From Minisyncoccota bacterium (GTDB lineage: Bacteria; Patescibacteriota; Minisyncoccia; Phycocordibacterales; UBA9973): 64,000 nucleotides of DNA. The notes beneath the pieces were generated by a model. That model had not been told where the DNA came from. It did no database searches and worked only from the letters and a program-made list of their open reading frames with translations. Positions 1,706 to 52,552 of this stretch are shown in pieces (position 1 is the stretch's first letter; every line of letters starts with the position of its first letter). The translations under genes were made by a program, and so were the position numbers. Where the stretch lies: positions 6,019-70,018 of the forward strand of contig JBAZVG010000001.1 of the NCBI GenBank assembly GCA_041661005.1. The letters are read 5' to 3'.

Positions 1706-2101
1706 GTGATTATTTGGCTAAAAAGAATCGGGTTAATTTTACTGATAATTTTTCTCGGGACAATAATTGACTACTTTGTCCACCAACTAAGCGATAATTT
1801 TACTGAGCAGTTTTCGTATTTTACCCACAAGATTGCTTTCGGTACATTGTGGGCGTTTGTCGCGTATTTAGTTTTCAGAAAATTTATCAAAACGCCTTTC
1901 TGGTTAGCATTTATAATGTCGGGAATGACATCGGTATTGCTTCAGTTTTTCTATTTTATCAATGAGCACGAACTGACATGGGTGACGGTATTTTTTCTGT
2001 TTGTGCATTTCTTAGTTTTCTTACTTCCCGGATATTATATTTGTAAGAAATATACGAATTTGTTTATAAATGAAAAAGAAAGTAAATCGCTTTTCTCCTA
2101 A
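1706..2101 (+). CDS. Hypothetical integral membrane protein
   Basis: 131 aa, 4 predicted TM helices. Confidence 0.4.
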   Translation: MIIWLKRIGLILLIIFLGTIIDYFVHQLSDNFTEQFSYFTHKIAFGTLWAFVAYLVFRKFIKTPFWLAFIMSGMTSVLLQFFYFINEHELTWVTVFFLFVHFLVFLLPGYYICKKYTNLFINEKESKSLFS

Positions 2102-2593
2102 AAAATTTGGCTATAGTAGATGAATCAGTAGGGAGTTTGACGATTTATTTAATCGGCAAAATTTTAACACGCGCACGGGTGGGTGGGGCAAGTGTTGTAT
2201 TTCATGTAGCCGACCTCCCCTCCAAAAAACTCTCCCTCCAAAAAATCTTTGGCTCGAACCTCTCCCTCCACGGACGCGTAGCGTCCGGAAACCCTTTCCC
2301 ACATTACGCAGAGCTTCGCTCTGCGCGCGAAAATTTTGGCGAAAAGTCCTTGAGTTTAATTACTGAGTGCTTATTAAACTCCGCTAGAACCTACTTTACC
2401 AAAAATTCAGGAGAAATGCCAAATCTAAAAGCGGACTCGGTTTTGCGAAAGCATTTTTTGGGGAAGCAGATTTCGCAAAACCTCGGCTAATATTTTTTTT
2501 GAATTCGGCGGGGTTAGATTCTATCCGCAGGAAGGGTTTGGGAGGGAATGCGGGTGAGTGTGTTTTGTTCTTAAAATTTGCTAAAATAACAAT

Positions 2594-3100
2594 ATGTCAA
2601 AAGAAATTCTCAATAGAATACTTGTTGTAGGAGATGCTGGCAGGGGAAAATCTACGTTGGCATCAAAAATTTCTGAAAAATTAGGGATACCGCATCATTC
2701 AACTGATGATTTTTATTATGAAGTAAAATTTTCTAAAGTTCGTGATAGGCCAGAAAGTATTACCAAAATTAAAGAAATTTTTGGAAAGAAAAAGTGGATC
2801 GTTGAAGGCACAAACAATCATCTAATTGAGCTCGGTCTTCACTCCGCTGATATAATTATTCATCTTAAATATAAAAGCATGCTTGCTCAGTGGGTGGTTC
2901 TCATTAAAAGATATTTCAAGAGAGAAAACGAGACTTTGGGGAAATTGTTTAGTCTTATGAAACATGTTTTTTATAAAAAATATAAATTAGGAGATAGAAA
3001 ATTGAAGCTAACCCATTCTGAACTTATTGAACCACACAAGCAAAAAGTAATTACGCTGTCTTCTTTTAAAGAAATTGATGGGTTTTTAAAATCTTTATAA
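2594..3100 (+). CDS. P-loop NTPase / small-molecule kinase-like protein (adenylate-kinase/AAA_17-like)
   Basis: Walker A motif VVGDAGRGKSTLA at the N-terminus; 168 aa. Confidence 0.5.
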   Translation: MSKEILNRILVVGDAGRGKSTLASKISEKLGIPHHSTDDFYYEVKFSKVRDRPESITKIKEIFGKKKWIVEGTNNHLIELGLHSADIIIHLKYKSMLAQWVVLIKRYFKRENETLGKLFSLMKHVFYKKYKLGDRKLKLTHSELIEPHKQKVITLSSFKEIDGFLKSL

Positions 3101-3114
3101 ATAATTTTATACAA

Positions 3115-3981
3115 ATGGAAAAGAGGAAATTATTAAGCAAAATTAGCCAAGAATTTCCAAACTTAAAGTGGAAAAACGCAGAACATAATACTGAAGGCTG
3201 GGATCATTATGTCATTATTTTAGATAATAAATATGTTTTTCGTTTTCCTAGAACCAAACAATATTTAAAAGTATTAAAAAATGAGGTATTCTTGCTCGAG
3301 TATTTGAAGAATAAAGTAAAAATTCCCATTCCGCAATATGCATATATTGCGAAAGATAAAAGTTTTGCCGGGTATTCTTTGATTCCGGGGACACAATTAA
3401 GGAAAAAAGTATTTGAATCGGTGTCTGAAAAAACAAAACATGCACTTGCCAAACAAATTGCGGATTTTCTTTCTTCTTTGCACAAAATACCAAACGAAGC
3501 TGTAAAAAAATATGGTGTGAAAATAGTTAATACTCAAAAACAATATAAAGAATTAATAATCAATACAAATAAATATATTTTTCCGAGAGTCTCAAAAAAA
3601 AGATCAGCTTTTGATAAATAACTACTTGAAAGAATTCAAAAATTATTTAAAATTTTCCAAAAAAGTTCTTACGCATAATGATCTTTATTCCAAACATATA
3701 CTTTTGGGAGAAAGTAAAAAAATATTTCTGGAATTATAGATTTTTCTGATAGAAAGATAGATGACCCAGCGAGAGATTTTACTGAAATGTGGGATTATGG
3801 AGAAAAATTTACCTTGGAAGTGTATAAAAATTACCAAGGTCCCAAAGATAAAGATTTTTTAAAGAGATCAATGATGTATTATAAAAGAATCCCTCTTTGG
3901 ACGATGATTTCTCCGTTTCAAGGCGGACGCGGGAAGTTTAAAAAGGGATATAAAATGTTTAAGGAATTGTTTTATGGATGA
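3115..3981 (+). pseudogene. Aminoglycoside/macrolide phosphotransferase (APH/Mph) family gene, disrupted by an in-frame stop and at least two frameshifts
   Basis: The N-terminal part (3115..3621, GWDHYVIILDNKYVFRFPR) matches the APH N-lobe. The same frame reads FDK-TAA-LLERIQKLF. The catalytic-loop motif HNDLYSKHIL (the HGDxxxxN equivalent) and IDFSD (the DFG-like Asp) lie in two other frames around 3660..3780. The last piece is ORF 3787..3981. The frame changes fall at A-homopolymers. Confidence 0.6.
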
Positions 3982-4435
3982 ATTTTTAGCTAAAATTTTA
4001 GAAACGCTAGGAGAGTTAAATGTAAAACCAGTAATTTATGGTTCGTTTGGTGTGGCTGTTTATCTTGGCAATTTTAAGAATTTTGAAGACATTGATGTTT
4101 TAATAGAAGATGAGTTTGTTAGTAATAGATGGAAAGAATTTAGAAAATTACTTGAGTCTAAGGGTTTTAATTTAATTAATGAAAAAGAACATGAGTTTGA
4201 ATTTAATGGTAAAAAAGTTGGATTTGCTTCAAAAAATATATTAATAAGAGATAAAATAATTAATGATTATTCAGAACTTGTTCAGTATAAAAATACAAAT
4301 GCTTTAACTTTAATGCCAGAAGGTTTTTTAAAAGCATATAAATTTAGCGTGAAAGATGGTTATAGAATTAATACAAGAGGGAAGAAAGATCAGGATATTA
4401 TTGAGAAGTTGGAAATTTATATAAAAAAGTTATAA
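3974..4435 (+). CDS. Pol-beta-like nucleotidyltransferase (small antibiotic NTase-like, cf. Lnu/ANT-type)
   Basis: 153 aa. GSFGVAVYLGN...DIDVLIEDEF fits the GS-x(n)-D-x-D nucleotidyltransferase signature. Size and pattern resemble small lincosamide/aminoglycoside NTases. Confidence 0.45.
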   Translation: MDEFLAKILETLGELNVKPVIYGSFGVAVYLGNFKNFEDIDVLIEDEFVSNRWKEFRKLLESKGFNLINEKEHEFEFNGKKVGFASKNILIRDKIINDYSELVQYKNTNALTLMPEGFLKAYKFSVKDGYRINTRGKKDQDIIEKLEIYIKKL

Positions 4436-4444
4436 TATCATTAT

Positions 4445-4831
4445 ATGAAAGCTTATTTAGTAATTAAATTTAAAGAAGATAATTCTAATCGAAAGACTAT
4501 CGAAGACATTTCAGCTGTTCTTGAAAAGATAGGCATGGAAACTACTGTCATGACTCGTGACTATGAAAAATGGGGAGAGGTAAGATTTACTCCCTTGGAA
4601 CTTATGCAAAAGACTTTTCAAATTATAGATTCATCTGACCTGCTTATTGTTGAATTTTCAGAAAAAGGTGTGGGGATAGGCATAGAAGCTGGTTATGCGT
4701 ATGCAAAAAATAAACCCATTTATGTTATATTAAAAGAAGGTTCAGATGTTTCAAACACACTTAGAGGTATAGCTAAAGATGTTATTTTTTATAATAATCC
4801 AGAAGAACTTATAGATAAGCTAAAAATTTAA
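4445..4831 (+). CDS. Nucleoside 2-deoxyribosyltransferase-like (NDT/Rcl/DNPH1 family) protein
   Basis: 128 aa. SDLLIVEFSEKGVGIGIEAGYAYAKNKPIYVI matches the conserved D...G(T)..E.GYA.A.(G)KP core of PF05014. Confidence 0.55.
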   Translation: MKAYLVIKFKEDNSNRKTIEDISAVLEKIGMETTVMTRDYEKWGEVRFTPLELMQKTFQIIDSSDLLIVEFSEKGVGIGIEAGYAYAKNKPIYVILKEGSDVSNTLRGIAKDVIFYNNPEELIDKLKI

Positions 4832-4839
4832 TAAATAAC

Positions 4840-6438
4840 ATGAAAAATTCCCCTTTAATTTACGGACTCCAAAGACCCAACGATAAACCTGATTTGATTT
4901 TAGTTAATTCACCAATAAGAGATTATACAGATGAAGAGAGACAGGAAACAGAACAATTACCAGCAATAGGCTTAGGATACATTGCAACTGTGTGTGAAAA
5001 AGCAGGTTTCAATGTTGGTTTGCTGGATGTAGAGGTTAATGGTTTGTCACCAGAAAAAGCAGCTGAAATAATTAATGAATCAAACCCTAGATGGGTTGGT
5101 GTTAATATGCTCACGCCAACTTTTCCTTTAGCTAAAAGAATTATTGCAAATATAAATAAGGGTATTCAAATTGAAGTTGGTGCTGCACATTCAAAAGCAT
5201 TATCAGAAAAAATATTAAGAGATTCAGAAATAGGTCACAAAATTGATTTAATCGTGCTTGAAGACGGTGAATTAATATCAAAAGGACTTCTTGAGGGAAA
5301 GAATCCCAGCGAAATGGGTGGGGTTGCTTATATAGACAAGTCTTCTGGTCAATATATTGAACACAGAGGAGACCCAGAAGGAAAATGGATTCCTAAAGAT
5401 TTAGATGCCTTACCATACTTGAATAGAAAATTTTTTAAAAATGGAATAATCAAATCGGAAGGAAGATTGGAAGCAAATATTGTAGGATCTCGAGGATGTC
5501 CTTTTTCTTGTCCATTTTGTGCTGGTGCAAAAGAAATGTTGATATTTGGGATTCGACAACGATCCATAGAAAATATTGTACAGGAAATAAAAAATCTAAA
5601 AGAACAAGGAGTAACGGCGATTAGATTTATTGATGATTTATTTTTATCAAGTCCAGCTCGCATAAAGCAATTTTTTAAACTAATGACTGAAGCAGGATTA
5701 AATGAACACGTTGTATGGGATGCAACAGGTAGAGCTAATATATTATCAAAACTAGACAAAGAAACATTAGAATTGATGGCGCGTAGTGGTGCTAGAGAAA
5801 TATCAATAGGCGTAGAGTCGGGATCACAAAGAATGCTCGATCTTATGAATAAAGGAATTAAACCAGAAATGGTAAGAAGCGCTATAGTAAATTTGGCATC
5901 TGTAGGAATACGCACAAAAACATATTTTATGTTGGGTATTCCTTCTGAAACGGAAGAAGAAGCGAAAGAGTCCGTAGCATTTATGCACGAATTACGTAAT
6001 CTTGCCAGAAAGACTGTTGCTGAGAATCCATTAACTCCAACAGGTAAACAGAATGAGGCTCAAAGTAGAGGAAGTATGTTTATTTTTCGACCATATCCAG
6101 GAACCCCTTTTAGTGAGCAGTTACAGGGTAAAAAAGAGTGGCCAGAAGGAACATGGAAAAATTCAGAACAACCATTATTTACAGAAGAAGAGATACTTGA
6201 GAGTTTTCATCCAACAACAATAAAACCTGGATTAGAAGTAAGACAAAAACATAGTTTCAGTACAACATTGCAATTGGGACCCTTGGAACCATCAAAAATA
6301 CAAGAAATGGTAGATGGTGCCATGCTCGCACAAAAGGAAGATATGGTTATACACGGGGAGTATTTGCCAGGCATAAAAGAAATAAAAGCTGAAAATAATG
6401 GAATAAATAAAACAGGAATGCCGTGGCGTATTGCTTAA
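4840..6438 (+). CDS. Cobalamin-binding-domain radical SAM enzyme (class B radical SAM)
   Basis: 532 aa. The N-terminal ~130 aa form a B12-binding-like Rossmann segment (LILVNSP...IGLGYIA...VGVNMLT). The CX3CX2C cluster is GSRGCPFSCPFCAG, and a TIM-barrel radical SAM core follows. Confidence 0.75.
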   Translation: MKNSPLIYGLQRPNDKPDLILVNSPIRDYTDEERQETEQLPAIGLGYIATVCEKAGFNVGLLDVEVNGLSPEKAAEIINESNPRWVGVNMLTPTFPLAKRIIANINKGIQIEVGAAHSKALSEKILRDSEIGHKIDLIVLEDGELISKGLLEGKNPSEMGGVAYIDKSSGQYIEHRGDPEGKWIPKDLDALPYLNRKFFKNGIIKSEGRLEANIVGSRGCPFSCPFCAGAKEMLIFGIRQRSIENIVQEIKNLKEQGVTAIRFIDDLFLSSPARIKQFFKLMTEAGLNEHVVWDATGRANILSKLDKETLELMARSGAREISIGVESGSQRMLDLMNKGIKPEMVRSAIVNLASVGIRTKTYFMLGIPSETEEEAKESVAFMHELRNLARKTVAENPLTPTGKQNEAQSRGSMFIFRPYPGTPFSEQLQGKKEWPEGTWKNSEQPLFTEEEILESFHPTTIKPGLEVRQKHSFSTTLQLGPLEPSKIQEMVDGAMLAQKEDMVIHGEYLPGIKEIKAENNGINKTGMPWRIA

Positions 6439-6466
6439 AATAATTTAATACATTTATATTAAAAAT

Positions 6467-7210
6467 ATGATTGAAGAAAAAGAGATAAAAATAAAAGTTG
6501 ATAAAAATATATTTGATGAGGCTAAAAAATATATTAAAGAACATACAAAACTGACAAAAACAAAATTTCAAATTGACGAATATTTTGATACAGAATTGTT
6601 TATGTTTACAAATTTAAATAGAGGAATTAGAGTTCGATATAATGATAAAATTCCTGAATCAGTAGAGTTTAAATCTTTATTTTGGAATAAATATGGTAAT
6701 CCTAATAATCCTTGGTATATTGAAGAGATAGGATTAAAAATACCGCTAGATACTGAAAGTAAAATAACTTTTCGTGCGATCTTAAAAAGATTTAATTTAT
6801 CATTAAATATACCTGAAGATATTGATGTTGACTATCAGTTATTCAAAGATTTATTAAACAAAATTGGATTATCTCCAAGAATTATTGTAACTAAAGAAAG
6901 AGAGGAATATGAAAATGATGAATCTACGTTTGTTTTTGATTATATAAAAGAACTTGGTTATTTTATTGAAATAGAAACAAAAGGTATTGATCCAATGGAT
7001 ATATTAAAAACAATACCTGTAATTAGTGATTATAGTGTTGTTCGAAATGGGTATAATGATATGGTTGGTGAAAATATTCCAAATTTAATATCAAATGATA
7101 TAAGGCAACAACTCTTTCGTTTAAATCATTCATGGAATATTCTAGAAACAGAAGTAGATATCGTAAATCAATTATTAAAAGAATATAAAGAAGTATGTCA
7201 AACCCAATAG
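6467..7210 (+). CDS. CYTH-domain protein (triphosphate tunnel metalloenzyme / class IV adenylyl cyclase-like)
   Basis: N-terminal EKEIKIKV (EiE-K motif), IRVRYND (R-x-R motif), C-terminal GYFIEIETKG (ExE motif). Its 3' end overlaps cmk by 16 nt. Confidence 0.55.
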   Translation: MIEEKEIKIKVDKNIFDEAKKYIKEHTKLTKTKFQIDEYFDTELFMFTNLNRGIRVRYNDKIPESVEFKSLFWNKYGNPNNPWYIEEIGLKIPLDTESKITFRAILKRFNLSLNIPEDIDVDYQLFKDLLNKIGLSPRIIVTKEREEYENDESTFVFDYIKELGYFIEIETKGIDPMDILKTIPVISDYSVVRNGYNDMVGENIPNLISNDIRQQLFRLNHSWNILETEVDIVNQLLKEYKEVCQTQ

Positions 7211-7905
7211 TGATTGCTATTGATGGACCAGCTTCTTCAGGAAAATCAACAATGGGGTTTTTGCTTGCTAAAGATCTTGGCTATCAATTTGTAGATTCTG
7301 GATTAATCTATCGTGTGGGTTGTGCATATATTTTAGAAAAAGGTATTGATATACTTAATATTTCAATGCTCGAAGAAGTTTTTCAAAACATGGATATTCA
7401 TTTTTATAACGAAGGATTAAAACAAAGAATTACTGCATTTGAGAATGATTATACAAATATTATTAATACCCCAGAAATAACAAAAATAGTTCCAGTTGTG
7501 GGAGCTAATCATACAGTACGGGAAAAAGTGCAAAAAATACAAAGAACTCTTGGTGCAGATAGAAATACTGTGATGGTTGGTCGAGATATTGGTAGCACAA
7601 TATTTCCCAACACACCACATAAATTTTTTATTACAGCATCTGCAGAAATACGAGCGCAAAGAAGATATAAACAATTGATTGATGGTGGAACAGTAGTAAC
7701 ATACGAAACTGTTTTTGAGGATATAAAACAACGGGATTTAAAAGATACAACAAGGGAAAGTTCCCCAATGATAATTCCAGAATCTGCAATAGTTATTGAT
7801 ACTTCTACACTTAGTATGGCTGAAACCGTTAATATGATTAAGATTACTTTTTTAAAAAATATTGAACCCAATAAGGAGCTACATTCTCAATTAAAGCTTA
7901 GATGA
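7195..7905 (+). CDS. cmk: Cytidylate kinase
   Basis: IAIDGPASSGKSTMGFLLAKDLGYQFVDSGLIYR is the canonical Cmk N-terminus with P-loop. Confidence 0.85.
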   Translation: MSNPIVIAIDGPASSGKSTMGFLLAKDLGYQFVDSGLIYRVGCAYILEKGIDILNISMLEEVFQNMDIHFYNEGLKQRITAFENDYTNIINTPEITKIVPVVGANHTVREKVQKIQRTLGADRNTVMVGRDIGSTIFPNTPHKFFITASAEIRAQRRYKQLIDGGTVVTYETVFEDIKQRDLKDTTRESSPMIIPESAIVIDTSTLSMAETVNMIKITFLKNIEPNKELHSQLKLR

Positions 7906-7935
7906 TTTATTAAAACTATATGATATTATGAAAAT

Positions 7936-8913
7936 ATGAATTATACAGATAGAGTATATGGAAGTTGCGAAATCACAGAACCTGTAATTTTGGAGTTAAT
8001 AAACTCTCCAACACTACAAAGATTAAAGGAAATTGATCAAGCGGGATATTTTGAACCACATTTCCCCAATACCAGACATTCACGTTTTGAACACTCTGTT
8101 GGAGTATATTTGCTTCTAAAAAAGTACGGTGCTCCTTTAGAAGAGCAGATTGCCGGTCTTATTCACGACGTGTCGCATTCCGCTTTTTCACATTGTATTG
8201 ATTATGTTTTAGATGGAGGATCAGGAAAGGAACACAACTATCAGGATGATATTTTTGATAATTTTGTAAAGAAATCGGAAATCCCTGCAATTCTAAAAAA
8301 ATATAATTTTGACCAAGATTATATTCTTAATGATAAAAATTTTCCACTTAAAGAAAAAGATTTACCCGATCTGTGCGCGGATAGGATAGATTATTCTTTG
8401 AGAACTGCTCTTGTTTTTGGGGTAGAAAAAGACGTGGAATATTTCCTTGATAATCTCACAGCGGAAGATAAAAACTGGGTTTATAAAAATTTTGAAAGCG
8501 CTAAAAAACATGCAGAACTTTTTAATAAATTAAACAATTATTGCTGGGCTGGGCTTCCTTCTGCTGTTATGTTTCGTACTGTCGGAGATTATCTTAAATA
8601 TGCTCTCTCTAAAAATTATATTTCCGAAAAAGATTTATATACAACCGATAAAATTGTTCTTGAAAAAATAGAACCTTGCATTAAGAATGATTCGCAACTA
8701 AACTTGTTATTTGAAAGAATGAATAATAAAATGGGTTTTAAAAATGATCCAAACGATTATGATGAGAAGGTATTTTGTAAATCACGAGTTATTGATCCAC
8801 TCTGTTTACATAACGGAGAAATAAAGAGAGTTTCTGAAATAGATTCAGGTTGGGCTGATGTAATTAAGTTAGAATCAAAACCAAAGGAATATTTTTTAAA
8901 GTTTGATAAATAA
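7936..8913 (+). CDS. HD-domain metal-dependent phosphohydrolase
   Basis: H...HD signature: RFEHSVGVYLL ... LIHDVSHSAFSH. Confidence 0.7.
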   Translation: MNYTDRVYGSCEITEPVILELINSPTLQRLKEIDQAGYFEPHFPNTRHSRFEHSVGVYLLLKKYGAPLEEQIAGLIHDVSHSAFSHCIDYVLDGGSGKEHNYQDDIFDNFVKKSEIPAILKKYNFDQDYILNDKNFPLKEKDLPDLCADRIDYSLRTALVFGVEKDVEYFLDNLTAEDKNWVYKNFESAKKHAELFNKLNNYCWAGLPSAVMFRTVGDYLKYALSKNYISEKDLYTTDKIVLEKIEPCIKNDSQLNLLFERMNNKMGFKNDPNDYDEKVFCKSRVIDPLCLHNGEIKRVSEIDSGWADVIKLESKPKEYFLKFDK

Positions 8914-8918
8914 TTTTT

Positions 8919-9605
8919 ATGCCCGACGACCAAAATTTAACCCAAAACCCAATTTCTGAAGAAAACTCTATTCCAGCAAGCCCTCAAGAGCCTATGGCGG
9001 ATACACCTGTTTCTACACCAGATCCTACCCCTGCCGAAATGCCCCTAGAAGCCCCAGAAACCTCTATAAACGCAGATATACCCATTTCCCTCAATAATGA
9101 TAATCCCCAAAATGAGCCTATTTCGACCCCTAACCCTGAAGAAGTGAAACCCGAAGAATTGCCAGCCGAAGGCGGAAAAATCGAGGGAATAACTCCTGTT
9201 TTATCTGAACCTTTGCAAACCCCTGAACCCCGAACGGCTCAAATACCAGTAAATGAGCCCTTCGGGAATACTCAGGACAAGCCGTTGGAATCTGTGCCAG
9301 TTTCAACCCCGCAACCACAATCAGTTTCCGATCCGATTTTTGCTGAACCGCAACAAAATAAAATTTCTCTCGCCCGCGAGCTTCTTGTAAAAGCTAGAAA
9401 CATGATTCAGTTTCGAAAAAGAAAAAAGCTGGATCGTGTGATGTCTTTGTTTCTCCAACGCTCTAAAATTACAAACGACGAAGTCGAAAAGTTTTTGCAC
9501 GTGTCTGATGCAACTGCAACTCGATATCTCTCACAACTAGAAAAGGAAGGAAAAATTAAACAGAGCGGAAAAACTGGAAAAGCGGTTTCGTATTCCAGAA
9601 TTTAA
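8919..9605 (+). CDS. Pro/Glu-rich low-complexity protein with C-terminal winged-helix-like DNA-binding segment
   Basis: The N-terminal 150 aa are P/E/T-rich. The C-terminus is KITNDEVEKFLHVSDATATRYLSQLEKEGKIKQSGKTGKAVSY. Confidence 0.4.
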   Translation: MPDDQNLTQNPISEENSIPASPQEPMADTPVSTPDPTPAEMPLEAPETSINADIPISLNNDNPQNEPISTPNPEEVKPEELPAEGGKIEGITPVLSEPLQTPEPRTAQIPVNEPFGNTQDKPLESVPVSTPQPQSVSDPIFAEPQQNKISLARELLVKARNMIQFRKRKKLDRVMSLFLQRSKITNDEVEKFLHVSDATATRYLSQLEKEGKIKQSGKTGKAVSYSRI

Positions 9606-10404
9606 TCTGAATTTTTTTTGGGGAGTGATTCTCGCGTGCACGCACGGGTGGGTAGGCTCGCGCGTACTCGCGCGAGCTGGGGCAAGCACGAGTATTTCGC
9701 CTCGGGCATTTCCGCTAGGGTGTCCATGACTAAAGGACGAGTGCCTGACCCGAATTGAAATCCAGAAATCGAAAGCGAAAGCGACACACTAAACACAATA
9801 TTGAAAAACGTAGAGTGGGGATGGCGAGGGCAGACTCCGCCAGCAGGCGGAGAGCCCGACCCGGGGAGAGGAAACTTCCTCTCCCCAAGAAGCGCGGGAA
9901 ACCGAACGGCTCATTTCCTGGTATTTGAGCCGTTCCGGTTTTCCCGCTCATAGGCATCTAGGCACTCGTAGCCCTAGCGGAAATGCCCGAGGCGGATGCC
10001 GAGGGTGCACTCTCAAAACTCTCAATAACCACCAAAATAGAAAAATGGTATAATGCCCGAGACAATGTTTTGAATTTTGAATTTGAATTTCTCCTGCGGG
10101 CAGAATTCGGAATCTCGCCAAAAGACACAGCCGAGGAAAATGGAAATCTAAATCCCCAAAATATTTGTTTCCATTTTCCGAGTCCGTTTGAATTAGCACA
10201 TTAGTAGAGCGTGGTAGAAATATTGAAGAAAAGAAAAAAGTGGAGCGTAAACCTTGGTTCGCTTGGAAACTTTTACAAATTTCTGCTAAAGTAGGTTCTA
10301 GCGGTATCGTAAAGGTACTCCCTCGGTCGTAGATCTACGGGCGAGACCAGCCGATGTAGCTCAGCTTGCCCCGCCTGAGCTAGGCGGGGTGAAGTAGAGC
10401 ATAG

Positions 10405-10477
10405 GCCGATGTAGCTCAGTTGGTAGAGCATCGCTTTCGTAAAGCGAGGGTCGACAGTTCAATCCTGTCCATCGGCT
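10405..10477 (+). tRNA. tRNA-Thr (anticodon CGT)
   Basis: Manual cloverleaf: acceptor gccgatg/catcggc, D-arm gctc/gagc, anticodon stem tcgct/agcga, loop ttCGTaa, T-arm gacag/ctgtc. No encoded CCA. Confidence 0.85.
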
Positions 10478-10493
10478 CCGCAATAAAAATATC

Positions 10494-11411
10494 ATGGACA
10501 AAGAAAAAGATAAAAATGAAATAGAAAATGAGATAGAAAGACTTGAGGTGCAAATGCTTGCGCCGGATTTTTGGAGTGATAAAGCTAAAGCTCAGAATAT
10601 TTTGAAAGAAATTTCCGATTTGAAAAATAAAAAAGAAGGCTTAGGAAAATACGATAAAGGTAACGCAATTATCACTATAATTTCCGGTGCGGGTGGGGAT
10701 GATGCCGAAGATTTTTCGAGCATGCTTCTCTCAATGTATATGAAGTATGTGAATAAAAAGGGATGGGATATTTCTTTTATTCATGAACACAAGAATGATC
10801 ATAATGGATACAGGAATGTATCTTTTGAAATAAAGGGGAAAAACCCGCCTAGACTCGGCGAGGCTGGTGTTTATGAAACGCTAAAGAACGAGGGAGGGGT
10901 GCATCGTCTTGTGCGGATTTCGCCTTTTAACGCGAAAAAATTAAGACATACTTCTTTTTCCTTGGTTGAAGTTTTACCTAAGTTTTCTAAACTTGAAGAA
11001 CATGATATCGTGATACCCGATGCTGATTTGAAAATTGAATTTGCGCGTTCTTCGGGTCCAGGGGGACAAAATGTTAACAAGAGGGAAACAGCTGTTCGTA
11101 TAGTTCATATCCCTACGGGAATTTCTGTTCACGCATCCGGAGAACGTAGCCAAGAGCAAAATCGTGAACAAGCTATGGCAATTCTCCGAGCGAAAATTTT
11201 CAAAAAGGCCCAAGAAGAAAAAAAATCAGTGGAAGAAAGTATGAAAATAAATAAAGGTACAGAGATAGAATGGGGAAATCAGATTCGCTCATATGTGTTG
11301 CATCCGTATAAAATGGTCAAAGATCATAGGACTGAAGCTGAAACTTCAAATATTGACGCTGTTTTAGATGGAGGACTTGATATTTTCATTGAGGCAGAAA
11401 AGAATTTGTGA
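10494..11411 (+). CDS. prfB: Peptide chain release factor 2
   Basis: SPF tripeptide (RISPFNAKK) and GGQ motif (SGPGGQNVNKRETAVRIVHIPTGI). It starts 17 nt after tRNA-Thr, and no upstream +1 frameshift segment is present. Confidence 0.85.
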   Translation: MDKEKDKNEIENEIERLEVQMLAPDFWSDKAKAQNILKEISDLKNKKEGLGKYDKGNAIITIISGAGGDDAEDFSSMLLSMYMKYVNKKGWDISFIHEHKNDHNGYRNVSFEIKGKNPPRLGEAGVYETLKNEGGVHRLVRISPFNAKKLRHTSFSLVEVLPKFSKLEEHDIVIPDADLKIEFARSSGPGGQNVNKRETAVRIVHIPTGISVHASGERSQEQNREQAMAILRAKIFKKAQEEKKSVEESMKINKGTEIEWGNQIRSYVLHPYKMVKDHRTEAETSNIDAVLDGGLDIFIEAEKNL

Positions 11412-12252: not shown

Positions 12253-12339
12253 AGACGTGGAATGACTTTTTATCAGGTCCTCGGTTCTCTGGGGCCCCGC
12301 GCCCCAGCCAGACCGTTCTAAAAAGTCATTCCACGTCTA
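12253..12339. repeat. Palindromic element: 19-bp perfect inverted repeats (tagacgtggaatgactttt / aaaagtcattccacgtcta) flanking a 48-nt GC-rich core; fills the ftsE-ftsX spacer
   Basis: Read directly. The core tcaggtcctcggttctctggggccccgcgccccagccagaccgttc is ~90% identical to the core at 51798..51843. Confidence 0.6.
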
Positions 12340-37641: not shown

Positions 37642-40113
37642 ATGAAAAAATCTTTAGAGACAAAAGAAGACGCAGGCGGTGTAGACAAAATTCTTCCAGT
37701 TGATGTCGTGACTGAAATGAAAGAGTCGTATTTGGCATACGCGATGTCTGTCATCACATCTCGCGCCTTGCCTGACGTCAGGGACGGATTGAAGCCGGTG
37801 CATCGCAGAATTTTGTTCGCCATGCATGAGATGGGACTCACCTCTTCCGCGCGTTTTAGGAAATCAGCCGCAGTTGTCGGAGATGTGCTTGGTAAATACC
37901 ATCCGCATGGAGATGTCGCAGTTTATGATTCGATGGTGGGCATGGCGCAAGAATTTTCTTATCGTTATCCGTTTATTTTGGGGCAGGGGAACTTCGGTTC
38001 CATTGATGGAGACAATGCCGCCGCTATGCGTTACACCGAGGCAAAAATGTCTAAAATATCGGGAGAACTTCTGAGAGATTTAGAAAAAGAAACAGTTGAT
38101 TTTCGCCCCAATTACGATCAGACCCGCAAAGAGCCGATAGTCTTTCCTTCTTCTGTGCCGGCGTTACTTTTGAACGGCACCTTGGGCATCGCTGTCGGTA
38201 TGGCTACGAATATCCCTCCACATAATTTGGCTGAAGTTTTGGATGCTACTAATCTTTTAATTGAAAATGAAGATGCTACGACAGAGGATTTGATGCAGTT
38301 TATAAAAGGTCCAGATTTTCCCACTGGGGGAATAATCTATGGATACAAAGACATGCTCCACGCTTACTCAGGAGGACGAGGTGGTGTCGTGACGAGAGGT
38401 GAAGCGGAAATAGTCGAACAAAAAGATGGTAATTTCTCCATTATCATAACTTCGATTCCTTTTCGAGTAAATAAATCAAATTTGATAATGGCGATAGCGG
38501 AGCTGGTGCAGGAAAAAAAGTTGGAAGGTATAAAAGGGCTTCGCGATGAATCAACCAAAGACATCAGGGTTGTGATCGATCTGAAAAGCAGCGCGCATCC
38601 TGAAAAAGTTTTAAATTATATTTACAAAAATACCCAGCTTGAATCAAATTTTAATTTCAATATTGTGGCGTTGGTGGATGGAGTTCCTCAGACCTTGTCA
38701 CTTAAATCAATTCTCGAGCAGTTTGTTTTACACAGAAAGGAGATTGTAAAAAGAAGAAGCGCTTACGATCTAAAAAGGGCCGAAGAGCGCGAGCATATCT
38801 TGCTTGGTCTCAAAAAAGCGTTGGACAAGATAGATCGTGTGATAACCGTGATCCGTGGATCCAAAAATTCTCAAATCGCAAAATTTAATTTAATGAAAGA
38901 ATTCAAGTTTTCTGATTTGCAGGCGACGGCAATTCTCGAAATGAAGCTGTCAAAATTGGCCGGGTTAGAGAGGCAAGCAGTAGAGGACGAACTCAAAGAA
39001 AAACAGAAATTTATTGCAGAGATGAAAGATCTCTTGGCAAGTCCAAAGAAAATTCTAAAGACAATTGCTACGGAATTAAAAGAAATTCGCGAGAAGTATG
39101 CCGACGAGAGAAGGACAAAGATAGTGAAGGGTGGAGTCAAAGAAATTTCTGACGAAGATTTAGTGCCAGAAAAAGAAACAATGCTTGTTTTGACGGCTGG
39201 CGGATATGTAAAATGCACTGATCCTTCTGAATATCACGCGCAAAAGCGGGGTGGAGTCGGAGTGGTTGACCTTGAAACCAAAGAAGAAGATTTTGTGACG
39301 ATGCTCGTATCCGGTTCTACTCACAGCAATCTACTTTTCTTTACAAATCTCGGCAAAGTTTATCAAATGAAAATGTATGATATTCCCGAAGGTCGCAGGG
39401 CGACTCGCGGTAAATCGATTATGAACTTTTTAGCGCTAGGAGGAGAGGAAAAAGTAACTTCGATTCTTGCAATGCCGAAAGATTTAACTAAAACTTCTTC
39501 TTCACTTATGCTGGTTACCAAGAATGGCACAGCAAAAAAAATGTCTTCAGAAAGTTTCAAAGATGTGCGCCGAAGTGGAATTATTGCCATTCGTTTAGAT
39601 AAAGATGATCAGCTTGTTTCTGCTCTTTCTATAGAAAAAGGAGATGAGGTTATGATCGCGACAGCTGAAGGTCAATCAATCAGATTTAAAGAATCTGATA
39701 TCAGAGAGATGGGTAGGACGGCAGGAGGTGTGCGTGGAATAAAACTAAGCAAAAATGATGCAGTTATTGGTGTGGATGTTATAAAAAATAATCAACAAAA
39801 AGAAAAAAGATCTGGGGCATTTTTGACCATGAGCGCAAATGGGTTTGGAAAGAAGACCGATCTGAAAGAATATAAAGTTCAAAAACGCGGCGGTTCCGGT
39901 GTGAAAACCGCGAAAGTTACTACAAAAACAGGCAAGCTCATTGTTGCGAAAGTTTTGACTGGCGAGGAAGAAGAATTGATTGCCATGTCCAAAAAAGGTC
40001 AGGTCATCCGAACAGCTTTAAAAGATATTTCATCCCTTGGCAGACAAACACAAGGTGTGACAATTATGCGTCTCCGCGCCGGCGATGGCATTGCATCGCT
40101 TGCGTGTATCTGA
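37642..40113 (+). CDS. gyrA: DNA gyrase subunit A
   Basis: [28 protein letters not shown] with the active-site Tyr region, and C-terminal beta-pinwheel repeats. No gyrB lies adjacent. Confidence 0.9.
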
Positions 40114-40227
40114 TTCTCCTCTTGAGGAGTACTCCGACCTAGGTCGGAGGGAGGTGGATGAATTCTCCACCCCGTCTCGCAAGCGAGCCACCCCTCAAGA
40201 GGGGAATAAATATGGTATAATTAACTC

Positions 40228-51262: not shown

Positions 51263-52552
51263 ATGCCCAAATCAAATAAAGGCTCGACAGAAAAAACAAG
51301 AAAAATATATTTAGATTATGCGTCCAGTGTGGAATCCAATCCAAGTTCTATACACATGGAAGGGGTGCAAGCCAGAGTCAGGCTTCAAAATGCGCGTAGA
51401 GAAGTTGCAGGTGTGCTTGGCGCAAAATCGGAAGAAATAATCTTTACCAGTGGAGGCACTGAGAGCAACAATCTTGCAATTCAAGGTATGGTTTTGTCTT
51501 TGCAGGGAAAAATGTTGCCCCATATTATAACAACAAACATCGAACACCCGTCTGTTCTTGAAACCTTTAAACTTCTTGAAAAAAGAAAACTTGCGCAAAT
51601 TTCCATAGTGCCCGTAGAAGCGAACGGCATTGTGGATCCAAAAAAAATAAAAAAAGAAATTAAAAAAAATACGGTTCTTGTGTCTGTGATGTATGCCAAT
51701 AATGAAATTGGCACTATCCAGCCCATAAGAGAAATTGCAAAAGAGATCAGACATTTTAGAAAGCAAAAGGAAAAGAAGAAAGGTTTTCTCAGGTCCTCGG
51801 TTCCCTGGGTCCCTCCCCCAGCCAGACCATTCCAAAACCTTTCTTCTTTTCCTTTTTTTCATACCGACGCAGTGCAAGCAGGAAACTATCTAGATTTGAA
51901 TGTAGAGAGATTGGGAGTGGATTTGCTCTCGCTTTCTGGTTCGAAAATTTTTGGTGGGGGTAAAGTTGGAGTGCTTTATAAAAAAAAATCTGTGCCTCTT
52001 GCAAATATATTTGGCGGGGGAAATCAAGAAATGGGATTACGTCCGGGCACGGAAAATTTGCCGGAGATTTTAAAATTTTCCAAGGCGCTTCAATTTACAC
52101 AGAAAGTAAAAGAAAAAGAGGCAAAGAGATTAACTAAACTTCGGGATTATTTTATCGCTTCGCTTCATCAAATTTTTTCCTCCTGCGTCCTTCTCGGATT
52201 ACCGAGTGGGACCCTCGGAAATAAAAAATTCGATGAAGCTTCACTCTTTGTAAATGGTGATTTAAAAGATAGATTGCCGAATAATATAAATATTACTATT
52301 CCAAATATTCCAAGCGATCTTTTGGTCATTGAGCTTTCAGCAAAAGGAATAATGTGTTCATCAAAAAGCGCTTGTGAATCCGGCGATGGCAAAGCGTCAT
52401 ATGTTATTAAAGCAATAAATAAAAATATTTCAGAAGAGGACGGCTCTTTGCGGTTTTCATTAGGAAGAGATACCACAAAAGCAGATATTGATTATACTGT
52501 TAAAGCTTTATCACAAATTTTGACTAAATTAGAAAAGTGGTACACCCGGTAG
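51263..52552 (+). CDS. Cysteine desulfurase (class V aminotransferase, NifS/IscS-like) carrying an in-frame ~30-aa insertion derived from a palindromic repeat
   Basis: SGGTESNNLAIQG, HTDAVQAG, SLSGSKIFGG (the PLP-Lys region), and catalytic-loop Cys in SSKSACESG. The segment RKQKEKKKGFLRSSVPWVPPPARPFQNLSSFPF precedes the conserved FHTDAVQ motif, where no insert is expected. Confidence 0.75.
   Translation: MPKSNKGSTEKTRKIYLDYASSVESNPSSIHMEGVQARVRLQNARREVAGVLGAKSEEIIFTSGGTESNNLAIQGMVLSLQGKMLPHIITTNIEHPSVLETFKLLEKRKLAQISIVPVEANGIVDPKKIKKEIKKNTVLVSVMYANNEIGTIQPIREIAKEIRHFRKQKEKKKGFLRSSVPWVPPPARPFQNLSSFPFFHTDAVQAGNYLDLNVERLGVDLLSLSGSKIFGGGKVGVLYKKKSVPLANIFGGGNQEMGLRPGTENLPEILKFSKALQFTQKVKEKEAKRLTKLRDYFIASLHQIFSSCVLLGLPSGTLGNKKFDEASLFVNGDLKDRLPNNINITIPNIPSDLLVIELSAKGIMCSSKSACESGDGKASYVIKAINKNISEEDGSLRFSLGRDTTKADIDYTVKALSQILTKLEKWYTR
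51765..51855. repeat. Palindromic element inside the cysteine desulfurase CDS: 22-bp inverted repeats (aaaaggaaaagaagaaaggtttt / aaaacctttcttcttttcctttt) flanking a 45-nt core homologous to the 12271..12318 core
   Basis: Read directly. Core tcaggtcctcggttccctgggtccctccccagccagaccattc. The flanking IRs are unrelated to those of the 12253 copy. Confidence 0.6.

Follow-up and report, generated by a model that had tools for sequence, protein, structure and literature searches.

A B12-binding-domain radical SAM enzyme and a CYTH protein as the putative core of a mobile cassette for pyrimidine nucleotide modification

Introduction

Few radical S-adenosylmethionine (SAM) enzymes remodel free nucleotides; the viperins and OxsB do so, and both have given chain terminators (ddhCTP and oxetanocin) of antiviral or pharmacological interest. 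Here we describe a locus in a 64-kb stretch of DNA from a Minisyncoccota bacterium (contig JBAZVG010000001.1, positions 6,019 to 70,018 of the forward strand; hereafter the window, with position 1 as its first letter) in which the gene for a radical SAM enzyme with a B12-binding-type domain is followed by the gene for a CYTH protein and flanked by further genes for nucleotide enzymes. We propose, at roughly even odds (a probability of about 0.5), that the radical SAM and CYTH proteins form the core of a small cassette, spread by horizontal transfer, whose product is a modified pyrimidine nucleotide.

Several described systems bear on this proposal. The product of viperin is a modified nucleotide that stays phosphorylated. 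Among B12 radical SAM enzymes C-methylation is the usual reaction, and AprD4, which has the same B12-binding domain as the enzyme described here, is yet reported to have no cobalamin requirement. Phages T4 (gp56, gp42 and gp1) and S-2L (MazZ, DatZ and PurZ) carry pathways in which a nucleoside triphosphate (NTP) pyrophosphatase or an HD hydrolase is followed by a modifier acting on the nucleoside monophosphate (NMP) and then by an NMP kinase. A preliminary description of the window, made from its sequence, had read five genes as one operon of nucleotide-directed enzymes and had named oxetanocin biosynthesis and the prokaryotic viperins (pVips) as precedents.

Results

We gathered loci by exact-protein look-up and by scans of GTDB genomes, IMG/VR and Joint Genome Institute (JGI) metagenomes (the best 80 of 385 relatives being kept from the GTDB scan), scored their open reading frames (ORFs) with hidden Markov models built from the cassette proteins, and dropped near-duplicates at 97% identity, which left 98 distinct loci, 11 from candidate phyla and 87 others. 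In every one of the 11 candidate-phyla loci the CYTH gene lies directly 3' of the radical SAM gene, at a spacing that runs from an overlap of a few nt to a gap of 35 nt. A (d)CMP kinase gene (cmk) follows CYTH with overlapping codons (4-nt overlaps) in six of the 11, which belong to different lineages; a MutT-like NUDIX gene comes after cmk in five, and in locus L015 a guanylate-kinase-like (Gmk-like) gene stands two genes past CYTH. Upstream, a DNPH1-like gene is present in six of the seven loci whose contigs reach that far, and five of these six proteins are ~190 aa long with a C-terminal ribbon-helix-helix tail. Neighbourhood comparison thus confirms that gene order is kept in relatives. 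Because it is, and because no characterised non-nucleotide family fits the radical SAM protein (see below), the suspicion of a nucleotide pathway withstood both of the objections that the preliminary description had itself anticipated.

The closest relative, locus L111, encodes a radical SAM protein 94% identical in amino acid sequence to that of the window. Aligned at their boundaries with blastn, the two loci have only the ~2.4-kb block holding the radical SAM and CYTH genes in common (Table 1), and in L111 (5144-10625) a type IV pilus operon is interrupted by the pair, with pilB (T2SSE ATPase) on one side and pilC (T2SSF) on the other. Since L111 and the window share that block alone, we take the radical SAM–CYTH pair to be the unit that moves; judged by these alignments, block 4803-7186 has moved or recombined as a unit. 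The pair can therefore exist without a linked kinase or glycosidase, and the view of five genes as a single operon-level unit did not survive the comparison. An AbiEii toxin gene lies ~3 kb upstream of the pair in L111.

The 87 other loci, mostly actinomycete, make up a sister clade with a different set of partners. The first gene, upstream of the radical SAM gene, encodes an AlkA-type 3-methyladenine DNA glycosylase in 77/87, a dTMP kinase gene (tmk) lies downstream in 74/87, a NUDIX or MazG gene is present in 64/87, and glycosylase, radical SAM protein, dTMP kinase and NUDIX or MazG occur together in 62/87. The profile of the AlkA-like glycosylase matched structure 2jhj at 5.9e-16 and its catalytic Asp is invariant; the kinase copy from phage SF3 passes TIGR00041, and a dCTP deaminase gene adjoins two distinct sister-clade loci. 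Taken over all lineages, the kinase is Cmk, Gmk-like or Tmk, the pyrophosphatase is CYTH, NUDIX or MazG, and the base remover is a short DNPH1-like protein, a DNPH1-like protein with a ribbon-helix-helix tail or an AlkA-like protein. That non-homologous enzymes occupy the same slots is the strongest argument that these proteins work jointly on nucleotides, and the radical SAM-centred arrangement recurs across phyla more than chance would allow. At the level of architecture, the analogy with viperin-plus-kinase pairs holds, the kinase slot being filled by Cmk, a Gmk-like protein or Tmk according to lineage.

The sister cassette is also found on mobile elements. In the temperate Streptomyces phage SF3 (L110 11175-14548; NC_028952 gp35-gp38) it lies between the lysis genes and the integrase gene. 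The products of gp35 to gp38 are an AlkA-like glycosylase (annotated as hypothetical), a B12 radical SAM protein, a thymidylate kinase and a MutT/NUDIX protein. Ten IMG/VR prophage contigs carry the cassette with the same genes, except that one contig starts inside it and is without the glycosylase, and the cassette is present in at least 12 Streptomyces or Kitasatospora plasmid records. Fourteen loci have an integrase gene 2-5 kb downstream, and nine have an endolysin gene upstream. Neighbours of other family members include GmrSD with an EcoRI-type methylase, conjugation genes (TrwB-like and relaxase-like) with an integrase gene ~5 kb downstream, prophage-like genes, AbiEii and an MNT-HEPN pair. 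PHROGs holds no family for the radical SAM protein or for the AlkA-like protein, and our full-text literature search found no description of the cassette or of an analogous system; phage SF3 turned up in a single paper, which names it in passing.

Phage carriage would also suit a scheme that follows T4 and S-2L, whereby a pyrophosphatase (NUDIX, MazG, CYTH or HD) converts a canonical (d)NTP to the (d)NMP, which is modified by the radical SAM enzyme and then restored to the pool by the kinase for use in the element's own DNA, and the glycosylase attacks DNA that lacks the mark or DNA that bears it. All three T4-type enzyme classes are present, an isolated phage and prophages carry them, and the glycosylase that leads most sister loci is of a DNA-acting type with its catalytic Asp in place. 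We nevertheless consider such DNA marking unlikely. The SF3 cassette, between lysis genes and integrase, stands outside the replication module; the window's pair occurs also in bacterial chromosomes, once in a pilus operon with no kinase; and the glycosidase of the candidate phyla is of the nucleotide-level DNPH1/BcmB type and no DNA glycosylase.

When the ORFs of the window were scored against Pfam and NCBIfam cut-offs, the radical SAM protein matched Radical_SAM (PF04055; 89.5 bits, 3.6e-25), above the Pfam cut-off, and the B12-binding domain (PF02310; 45.1 bits against a cut-off of 32.1; 1.1e-11). Its cluster motif, C220-x3-C224-x2-C227 (GSRGCPFSCPFCAG), is intact. Since this is the one CX3CX2C motif of the protein, which has four Cys in total, an auxiliary Fe-S cluster is unlikely, and no RNA-binding domain is present. 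The CX3CX2C core and the N-terminal Rossmann B12-binding domain together are the architecture of class B radical SAM enzymes. An AlphaFold2 model (pLDDT 88) superposes on TsrM, MgmA, CysS and TokK; the closest folds are AprD4 (top), TsrM and MgmA, and OxsB is the most distant in that group. Identity to these neighbours in the PDB is at most 23%, and NCBIfam matches all fall 5- to 10-fold under their cut-offs, which disposes of membership in a characterised non-nucleotide family. By these comparisons the enzyme represents a lineage of its own, as yet unnamed, within the B12-binding-domain radical SAM group and outside every characterised family. It has ~28 close relatives at 48-86% identity and, beyond these, a large family at 34-40%. 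The enzyme may use cobalamin, a point that no sequence motif decides. One relative (L016, 5465-7306) encodes a further B12-binding radical SAM protein, distinct from the first and 613 aa long; its gene lies 3.8 kb past the cassette, beyond genes for an MNT-HEPN toxin-antitoxin pair and a GAF histidine kinase.

The fold comparison bears on a further alternative, that the radical SAM enzyme acts on a polymer or a non-nucleotide (RNA, DNA in situ, a sugar or a lipid) and that the nucleotide enzymes just supply or recycle cofactors. Substrates of its structural neighbours are an aminoglycoside (AprD4), tryptophan (TsrM), a protein (MgmA) and an rRNA protein or tRNA (RimO, MiaB), and the AlkA-like partner could present DNA bases. 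We regard this alternative as quite improbable: it leaves the constant NMP kinases and NTP pyrophosphatases, and the exchange of non-homologous enzymes in the same slots, unexplained, and the probable lack of an auxiliary cluster and the lack of an RNA-binding domain in the protein also count against it.

The CYTH protein matches PF01928 with 48.8 bits (cut-off 23.2; 9.3e-13). Its ExExK motif and the Arg, Lys and Glu residues of the tunnel are unchanged across eight homologues (E3, E4, E6, K8, R55, R57, E67, K69, E86, E87, K143, R145, E168 and E170 being invariant), and domain, motif and charged tunnel residues together place it among the CYTH proteins, or triphosphate tunnel metalloenzymes (TTMs). 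A C-terminal extension of ~70 aa bears invariant GYNDM and WN motifs. Its profile matched TTM Saci_0718 in the PDB at 1.1e-11, and the protein is closer to triphosphatase-type TTMs than to CyaB cyclases. The subtype is rare, with 16 representative clusters out of 1.84 billion reaching E<=1e-30, and is comparable in rarity to the radical SAM clade. A sister group of the cassette-type CYTH proteins (P0382, P0393, P0401 and P0418), at 26-33% identity, includes fusion proteins of 470-483 aa; these are uninformative, since their C-terminal ~250 aa have no Pfam match.

With CYTH as the second member of the core, the minimal unit is a radical SAM enzyme and a phosphohydrolase, as it is for OxsB/OxsA (PMC12931638). 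One might then suppose an oxetanocin-like secreted nucleoside antibiotic: the radical SAM enzyme and the phosphohydrolase (CYTH standing in for OxsA) would remodel a nucleotide, which would be dephosphorylated and released, and the glycosidase and kinase would serve self-resistance or salvage. The sister cassette is common on Streptomyces plasmids, and CMP glycosidases of the BcmB, MilB and BlsM type belong to nucleoside-antibiotic pathways. We give this supposition little credence. The oxetanocin precedent, as the preliminary description had framed it, falls on both sides of the pair: the HD protein of the window is not OxsA-like, and OxsB is the most distant fold.

Among the accessory genes, the cmk of the window passes the NCBIfam equivalog model TIGR00017 with 193.8 bits against a cut-off of 135.55, and the cassette cmk of L001 scores 213.9. 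We found no second cmk within the 64-kb window, as had been stated before, and the gene may also be the cell's housekeeping copy; pairwise identities of cmk, CYTH and radical SAM among relatives did not discriminate on this question.

The short protein encoded upstream, which had been called as a member of the nucleoside 2-deoxyribosyltransferase (NDT) superfamily, scores 26.4 bits on PF05014 when taken alone, under the cut-off of 28.8. The profile of its family, however, matched the CMP N-glycosidase BcmB (4jen; 1.5e-10) and DNPH1 (3.8e-5) in the PDB, and E81, aligned to the catalytic Glu nucleophile, is invariant; the family profile thereby rescues the call. Short NDT-like genes of the type seen in the window lie beside the radical SAM gene in three distant family members (L115, L117 and L118; 31-37% identity, E 1e-20 to 1e-26), which partly restores the link between the two genes. 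The suggested co-occurrence of NDT-like and B12 radical SAM genes is thus seen there, but the NDT-like family, with 260 matches (the top 120 at 56-87% identity), is mostly without a radical SAM gene.

The tailed proteins of the candidate-phyla loci join a DNPH1/Rcl-like domain to a C-terminal ribbon-helix-helix (DUF6290-like) tail (L001 7284-7862, L003 7352-7945, L005 7324-7896 and L013 6311-6883) and keep the catalytic Glu, E84 being aligned to that of Rcl. We know of no description of a ribbon-helix-helix DNA-binding tail on a DNPH1-type glycosidase; such a protein could act as a regulator that senses nucleotides or as a glycosidase directed at DNA. The NDT-like protein of the window is not an orthologue of the tailed type, from which it differs as a member of a separate, widespread family (22-24% identity).

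The last of the five genes encodes an HD protein, its HD domain matching at 2.9e-5, just over the Pfam cut-off. The protein has 3287 homologues, of which the top 120 (71-79% identity) are nearly all 325 aa long and come from many candidate-phyla lineages. In three sampled contexts of such homologues the neighbours varied, with neither cmk nor a radical SAM gene adjoining, and none of the other 97 radical SAM loci has the HD gene. A Foldseek search with its model (pLDDT 80) returned 2hek, EF1143 (TMq 0.72-0.75), followed by SAMHD1, and OxsA was not among the 50 matches listed. The metal motif (H53, H77-D78 and D149-x2-D152-Y153) is invariant; this H...HD...D motif and the fold are those of SAMHD1/EF1143-type dNTPases. 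On the grounds of fold, ubiquity and unrelated contexts we reject the protein as an OxsA analogue or a cassette member; the gene is a ubiquitous candidate-phyla core gene that probably lies outside the cassette. The preliminary idea of a nucleotide-directed pathway consequently stands in part: the radical SAM gene does sit in a conserved, nucleotide-centred cassette, but HD probably lies outside it and the NDT-like family of the window is usually found without a radical SAM gene.

Carried further, these observations would make the whole arrangement largely coincidental synteny, the pair having landed in a nucleotide-salvage neighbourhood of a reduced genome, with cmk, HD and the NDT-like gene as housekeeping genes and the pair itself perhaps part of a salvage or cofactor pathway. 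HD and short NDT-like genes are indeed widespread in candidate phyla in unrelated contexts, a relative without a radical SAM gene keeps the NDT-like and P-loop kinase genes as a pair, cmk passes a housekeeping equivalog model and is the sole cmk of the window, and L111 has the radical SAM–CYTH pair alone. Coincidence is a quite doubtful account all the same, given that cmk follows CYTH with overlapping codons in over half of the candidate-phyla loci, from different lineages, that other NMP kinases occupy the same slot elsewhere, and that short NDT-like genes lie beside three distant family members. The pair is, moreover, far too rare and patchy for housekeeping.

Other features of the window

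The five plus-strand ORFs, their tight spacing (gaps of 8, 28 and 30 nt, and a CYTH/cmk overlap of 16 nt) and their domains, as first reported, were borne out by our ORF calls, by Pfam and NCBIfam and by the cluster motif; the features are listed in Table 1.

Table 1. Positions of the cassette genes and their neighbours in the 64-kb window
Feature	Position	Strand	Remarks
Short NDT-superfamily N-glycosidase (DNPH1/BcmB kind)	4445-4831	+	128 aa; 8 nt before radical SAM start; accessory or neighbour
Radical SAM enzyme, N-terminal B12-binding-type Rossmann domain	4840-6438	+	532 aa; core gene 1
CYTH / triphosphate-tunnel metalloenzyme	6467-7210	+	247 aa; core gene 2
(d)CMP kinase, cmk	7195-7905	+	236 aa; accessory; 5' end in 16-nt overlap with CYTH 3' end
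Compact HD phosphohydrolase, EF1143/SAMHD1 dNTP triphosphohydrolase type	7936-8913	+	325 aa; neighbour, probably outside the cassette
Radical SAM and CYTH block common to window and L111	4803-7186	+	89.8% nt identity; includes ~37 nt upstream

A sixth plus-strand ORF (8919-9605) begins 5 nt past the HD gene. Its 228-aa product is of low complexity over the N-terminal 160 aa, which are rich in Pro, Glu, Thr and Gln, and ends in a winged helix-turn-helix (weak HTH_24/MarR matches); in locus L117 a 368-aa winged-helix protein is likewise encoded, there upstream of the radical SAM gene. A promoter and terminator scan of window positions 2000-10600 gave no more sites than shuffled sequence did.

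Upstream of the five genes is the accessory block of P-loop kinase, decayed aminoglycoside phosphotransferase (APH) and nucleotidyltransferase (NTase) genes that had been reported before. The P-loop kinase ORF (2594-3100; 168 aa) is similar to DNA-topology-modulation and adenylate-kinase proteins. The ORF at 3115-3621 is APH(2'')-like and truncated, spanning only positions 10-164 of a 306-position model, and is thus a cut-down aminoglycoside or macrolide phosphotransferase gene; a 64-aa ORF after it has no family match, and the ORF at 3974-4435 has a weak NTase match. In L102 (5990-6882), a locus with no radical SAM gene, the NDT-like gene adjoins the same 168-aa P-loop kinase gene (75% identical to the window's), at 76-81% nt identity. 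The window has the two genes in the opposite order and 1.35 kb apart, with the APH fragment and the NTase gene between them, and by this comparison the upstream accessory block is rearranged relative to L102.

The window as a whole, part of an 813-kb contig from a metagenome-assembled Candidatus Paceibacterota genome, is poor in GC and contains a 16S rRNA gene standing alone as well as a tmRNA gene. GC content is 49% over 9-10.5 kb and 26-35% in the cassette region. Within that GC-rich part, positions 9620-10010 (plus strand) are intergenic, with a longest ORF of at most 83 aa, and fold at -204 kcal/mol (z = -9.95 against shuffles) into several perfect GC hairpins and a long closing helix (~9700-9722 paired with 9972-9994); the segment has no Rfam family match and is a candidate for an unannotated structured RNA or a mobile-element remnant. 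Farther on, the 15-nt 5' end of tRNA-Thr (GCCGATGTAGCTCAG) is present in two exact copies, at 10350-10364 and 10405-10419. The extra copy lies 55 nt upstream of the real tRNA, with a GC hairpin after it, against a chance expectation of 0.05 copies, and may be a scar left by integration, or the result of a partial duplication of the tRNA, at the border of the accessory block.

Three stretches of 64-97 nt elsewhere in the window (40113-40209, 51771-51841 and 12260-12323) are 81-91% identical to intergenic segments of L111 (5027-5116 and 14304-14373). Gene ends directly precede at least two of the three, and the alignments suggest that they may belong to a dispersed terminator-like or miniature repeat family common to these Paceibacterota genomes.

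Discussion

In the explanation we favour, a radical SAM–CYTH core making a modified pyrimidine nucleotide, the radical SAM enzyme would abstract a hydrogen from a cytidine nucleotide and so modify its sugar or base, either by C-methylation or by dehydrating the ribose diol in the manner of AprD4 or viperin, the latter option being the one that the nearest fold suggests. CYTH, with NUDIX, MazG or HD neighbours, would determine how far substrate or product is phosphorylated (NTP to NMP or nucleoside diphosphate). The NMP kinase (Cmk here, Tmk in actinomycetes and a Gmk-like enzyme in one relative) would re-phosphorylate the modified NMP towards the triphosphate. Finally, the base remover (a DNPH1/BcmB-like protein in the window, an AlkA-like DNA glycosylase in the actinomycetes) would clear the modified nucleotide or base from the host pool or DNA, or else would make lethal abasic sites where the product had been incorporated. 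We lean towards pyrimidines because Cmk and Tmk pass equivalog cut-offs, because the best glycosidase match is a CMP N-glycosidase and because dCTP deaminase is encoded at two loci. As to its role, mobility and genomic context suggest that the cassette might serve in phage-host conflict, with a viperin-like logic, rather than in housekeeping.

Several points weigh against this explanation. First, the chemistry as a whole, substrate, product and phenotype included, is what we infer from gene content and context. The nearest solved structure, AprD4, works on an aminoglycoside sugar and on no nucleotide, and we know of no candidate-phyla bacteria that make cobalamin. Second, the lone pair in L111 indicates that the cassette can do without kinase and glycosidase, at least in cis. 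The NDT-like family of the window is large, belongs to candidate phyla and DPANN and usually occurs without a radical SAM gene; the NDT-like gene, HD and possibly cmk are ordinary candidate-phyla genes found elsewhere without a radical SAM gene, so part of the impression that all of the genes encode nucleotide enzymes stems from a salvage-gene neighbourhood. Third, a position between lysis genes and integrase is typical of prophage or defence cargo, yet is no proof of such a function, and the PADLOC matches described below are weak and limited to the radical SAM core.

A more ambitious claim is possible, though we would bet against it as it stands: that an undescribed radical SAM family produces natural pyrimidine nucleotide analogues of a new, antiviral class (C-methylated or deoxy/didehydro analogues of CTP or dTTP, for instance) by way of a self-contained cassette that has its own phosphorylation control (CYTH, NUDIX or MazG with an NMP kinase) and a dedicated glycosidase or DNA glycosylase, which would protect the producer or make lethal abasic sites from incorporated analogue, and that this cassette has spread among candidate-phyla bacteria, actinomycetes, plasmids and temperate phages. 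If true, it would be a third, unrelated lineage of nucleotide-remodelling radical SAM enzymes, with kinase, pyrophosphatase and glycosidase partners of its own, and would extend the known nucleotide chemistry; a further type of phage-host conflict system could come with it. Although the host of the window is uncultured, the question is directly testable, since a cultured temperate Streptomyces phage (SF3, gp35-38) and many cultured actinomycetes carry the cassette.

Comparison with known systems

Among candidate defence systems, the two-gene PDC-M51 of PADLOC resembles the cassette in pairing a radical SAM protein with a kinase. PDC-M51A matched the radical SAM protein of the window weakly (4.6e-12, 43.5 bits, over residues 214-384 only), as it did that of L001 (2.4e-10), and PDC-M51B matched the SF3 Tmk (2.4e-12, 45 bits); the SF3 radical SAM protein gave no match to PDC-M51A at 1e-3, and the cmk of the window none to PDC-M51B. 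Together with matches to VakA and PDC-S07 for the generic kinase and NUDIX proteins, these weak, partial matches do not show membership in a known defence system. We found no published description of PDC-M51.

With the T4 and S-2L pathways the cassette shares its enzyme classes and carriage by phage. The modifier in those pathways is a homologue of thymidylate synthase or PurA, whereas that of the cassette is a radical SAM protein, and the site of the SF3 cassette is a prophage cargo position, not the replication module in which phage hypermodification genes lie. The cassette glycosidases, short and tailed alike, have the fold signature and the catalytic Glu of DNPH1/Rcl, BcmB, MilB and BlsM.

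AprD4, a radical SAM 1,2-diol dehydratase of the apramycin pathway, is the top structural neighbour of the window's enzyme, yet the two are 21% identical, and against the AprD4 family model NF033070 the enzyme scores 56.8 bits where the cut-off is 500. AprD4 takes an aminoglycoside as its substrate, and no AprD3-type reductase partner is encoded at the cassette.

OxsB and OxsA resemble the core pair in that a radical SAM enzyme with a B12-binding domain has a phosphohydrolase partner. Term searches of a 2026 review (PMC12931638) brought up OxsB as the sole nucleotide-acting B12 radical SAM enzyme, and the review describes extra N-terminal and helix-bundle domains in OxsB. At 532 aa, against 744 aa for the OxsB chain, the enzyme of the window has no room for such domains, and of the class I B12 radical SAM structures OxsB is the most distant from it, which speaks against a specific relation. 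OxsA is a small HD protein, whereas the partner here is CYTH; the HD protein of the window is of the EF1143/SAMHD1 type and its gene is unlinked to the radical SAM gene in relatives.

The prokaryotic viperins and the vertebrate viperin-CMPK2 pair resemble the cassette in having a radical SAM gene beside one for a pyrimidine NMP kinase of the Cmk/Tmk family, on mobile elements, and here too the expected product is a modified nucleotide that remains phosphorylated. Adjacency to an NMP kinase is likewise frequent here (cmk in 6/11, a Gmk-like gene in one more and tmk in 74/87), but the radical SAM protein is not of the viperin type. Overall, the enzyme lineage and the architecture of the cassette appear undescribed, with a logic that resembles both viperin-plus-kinase and OxsB/OxsA.

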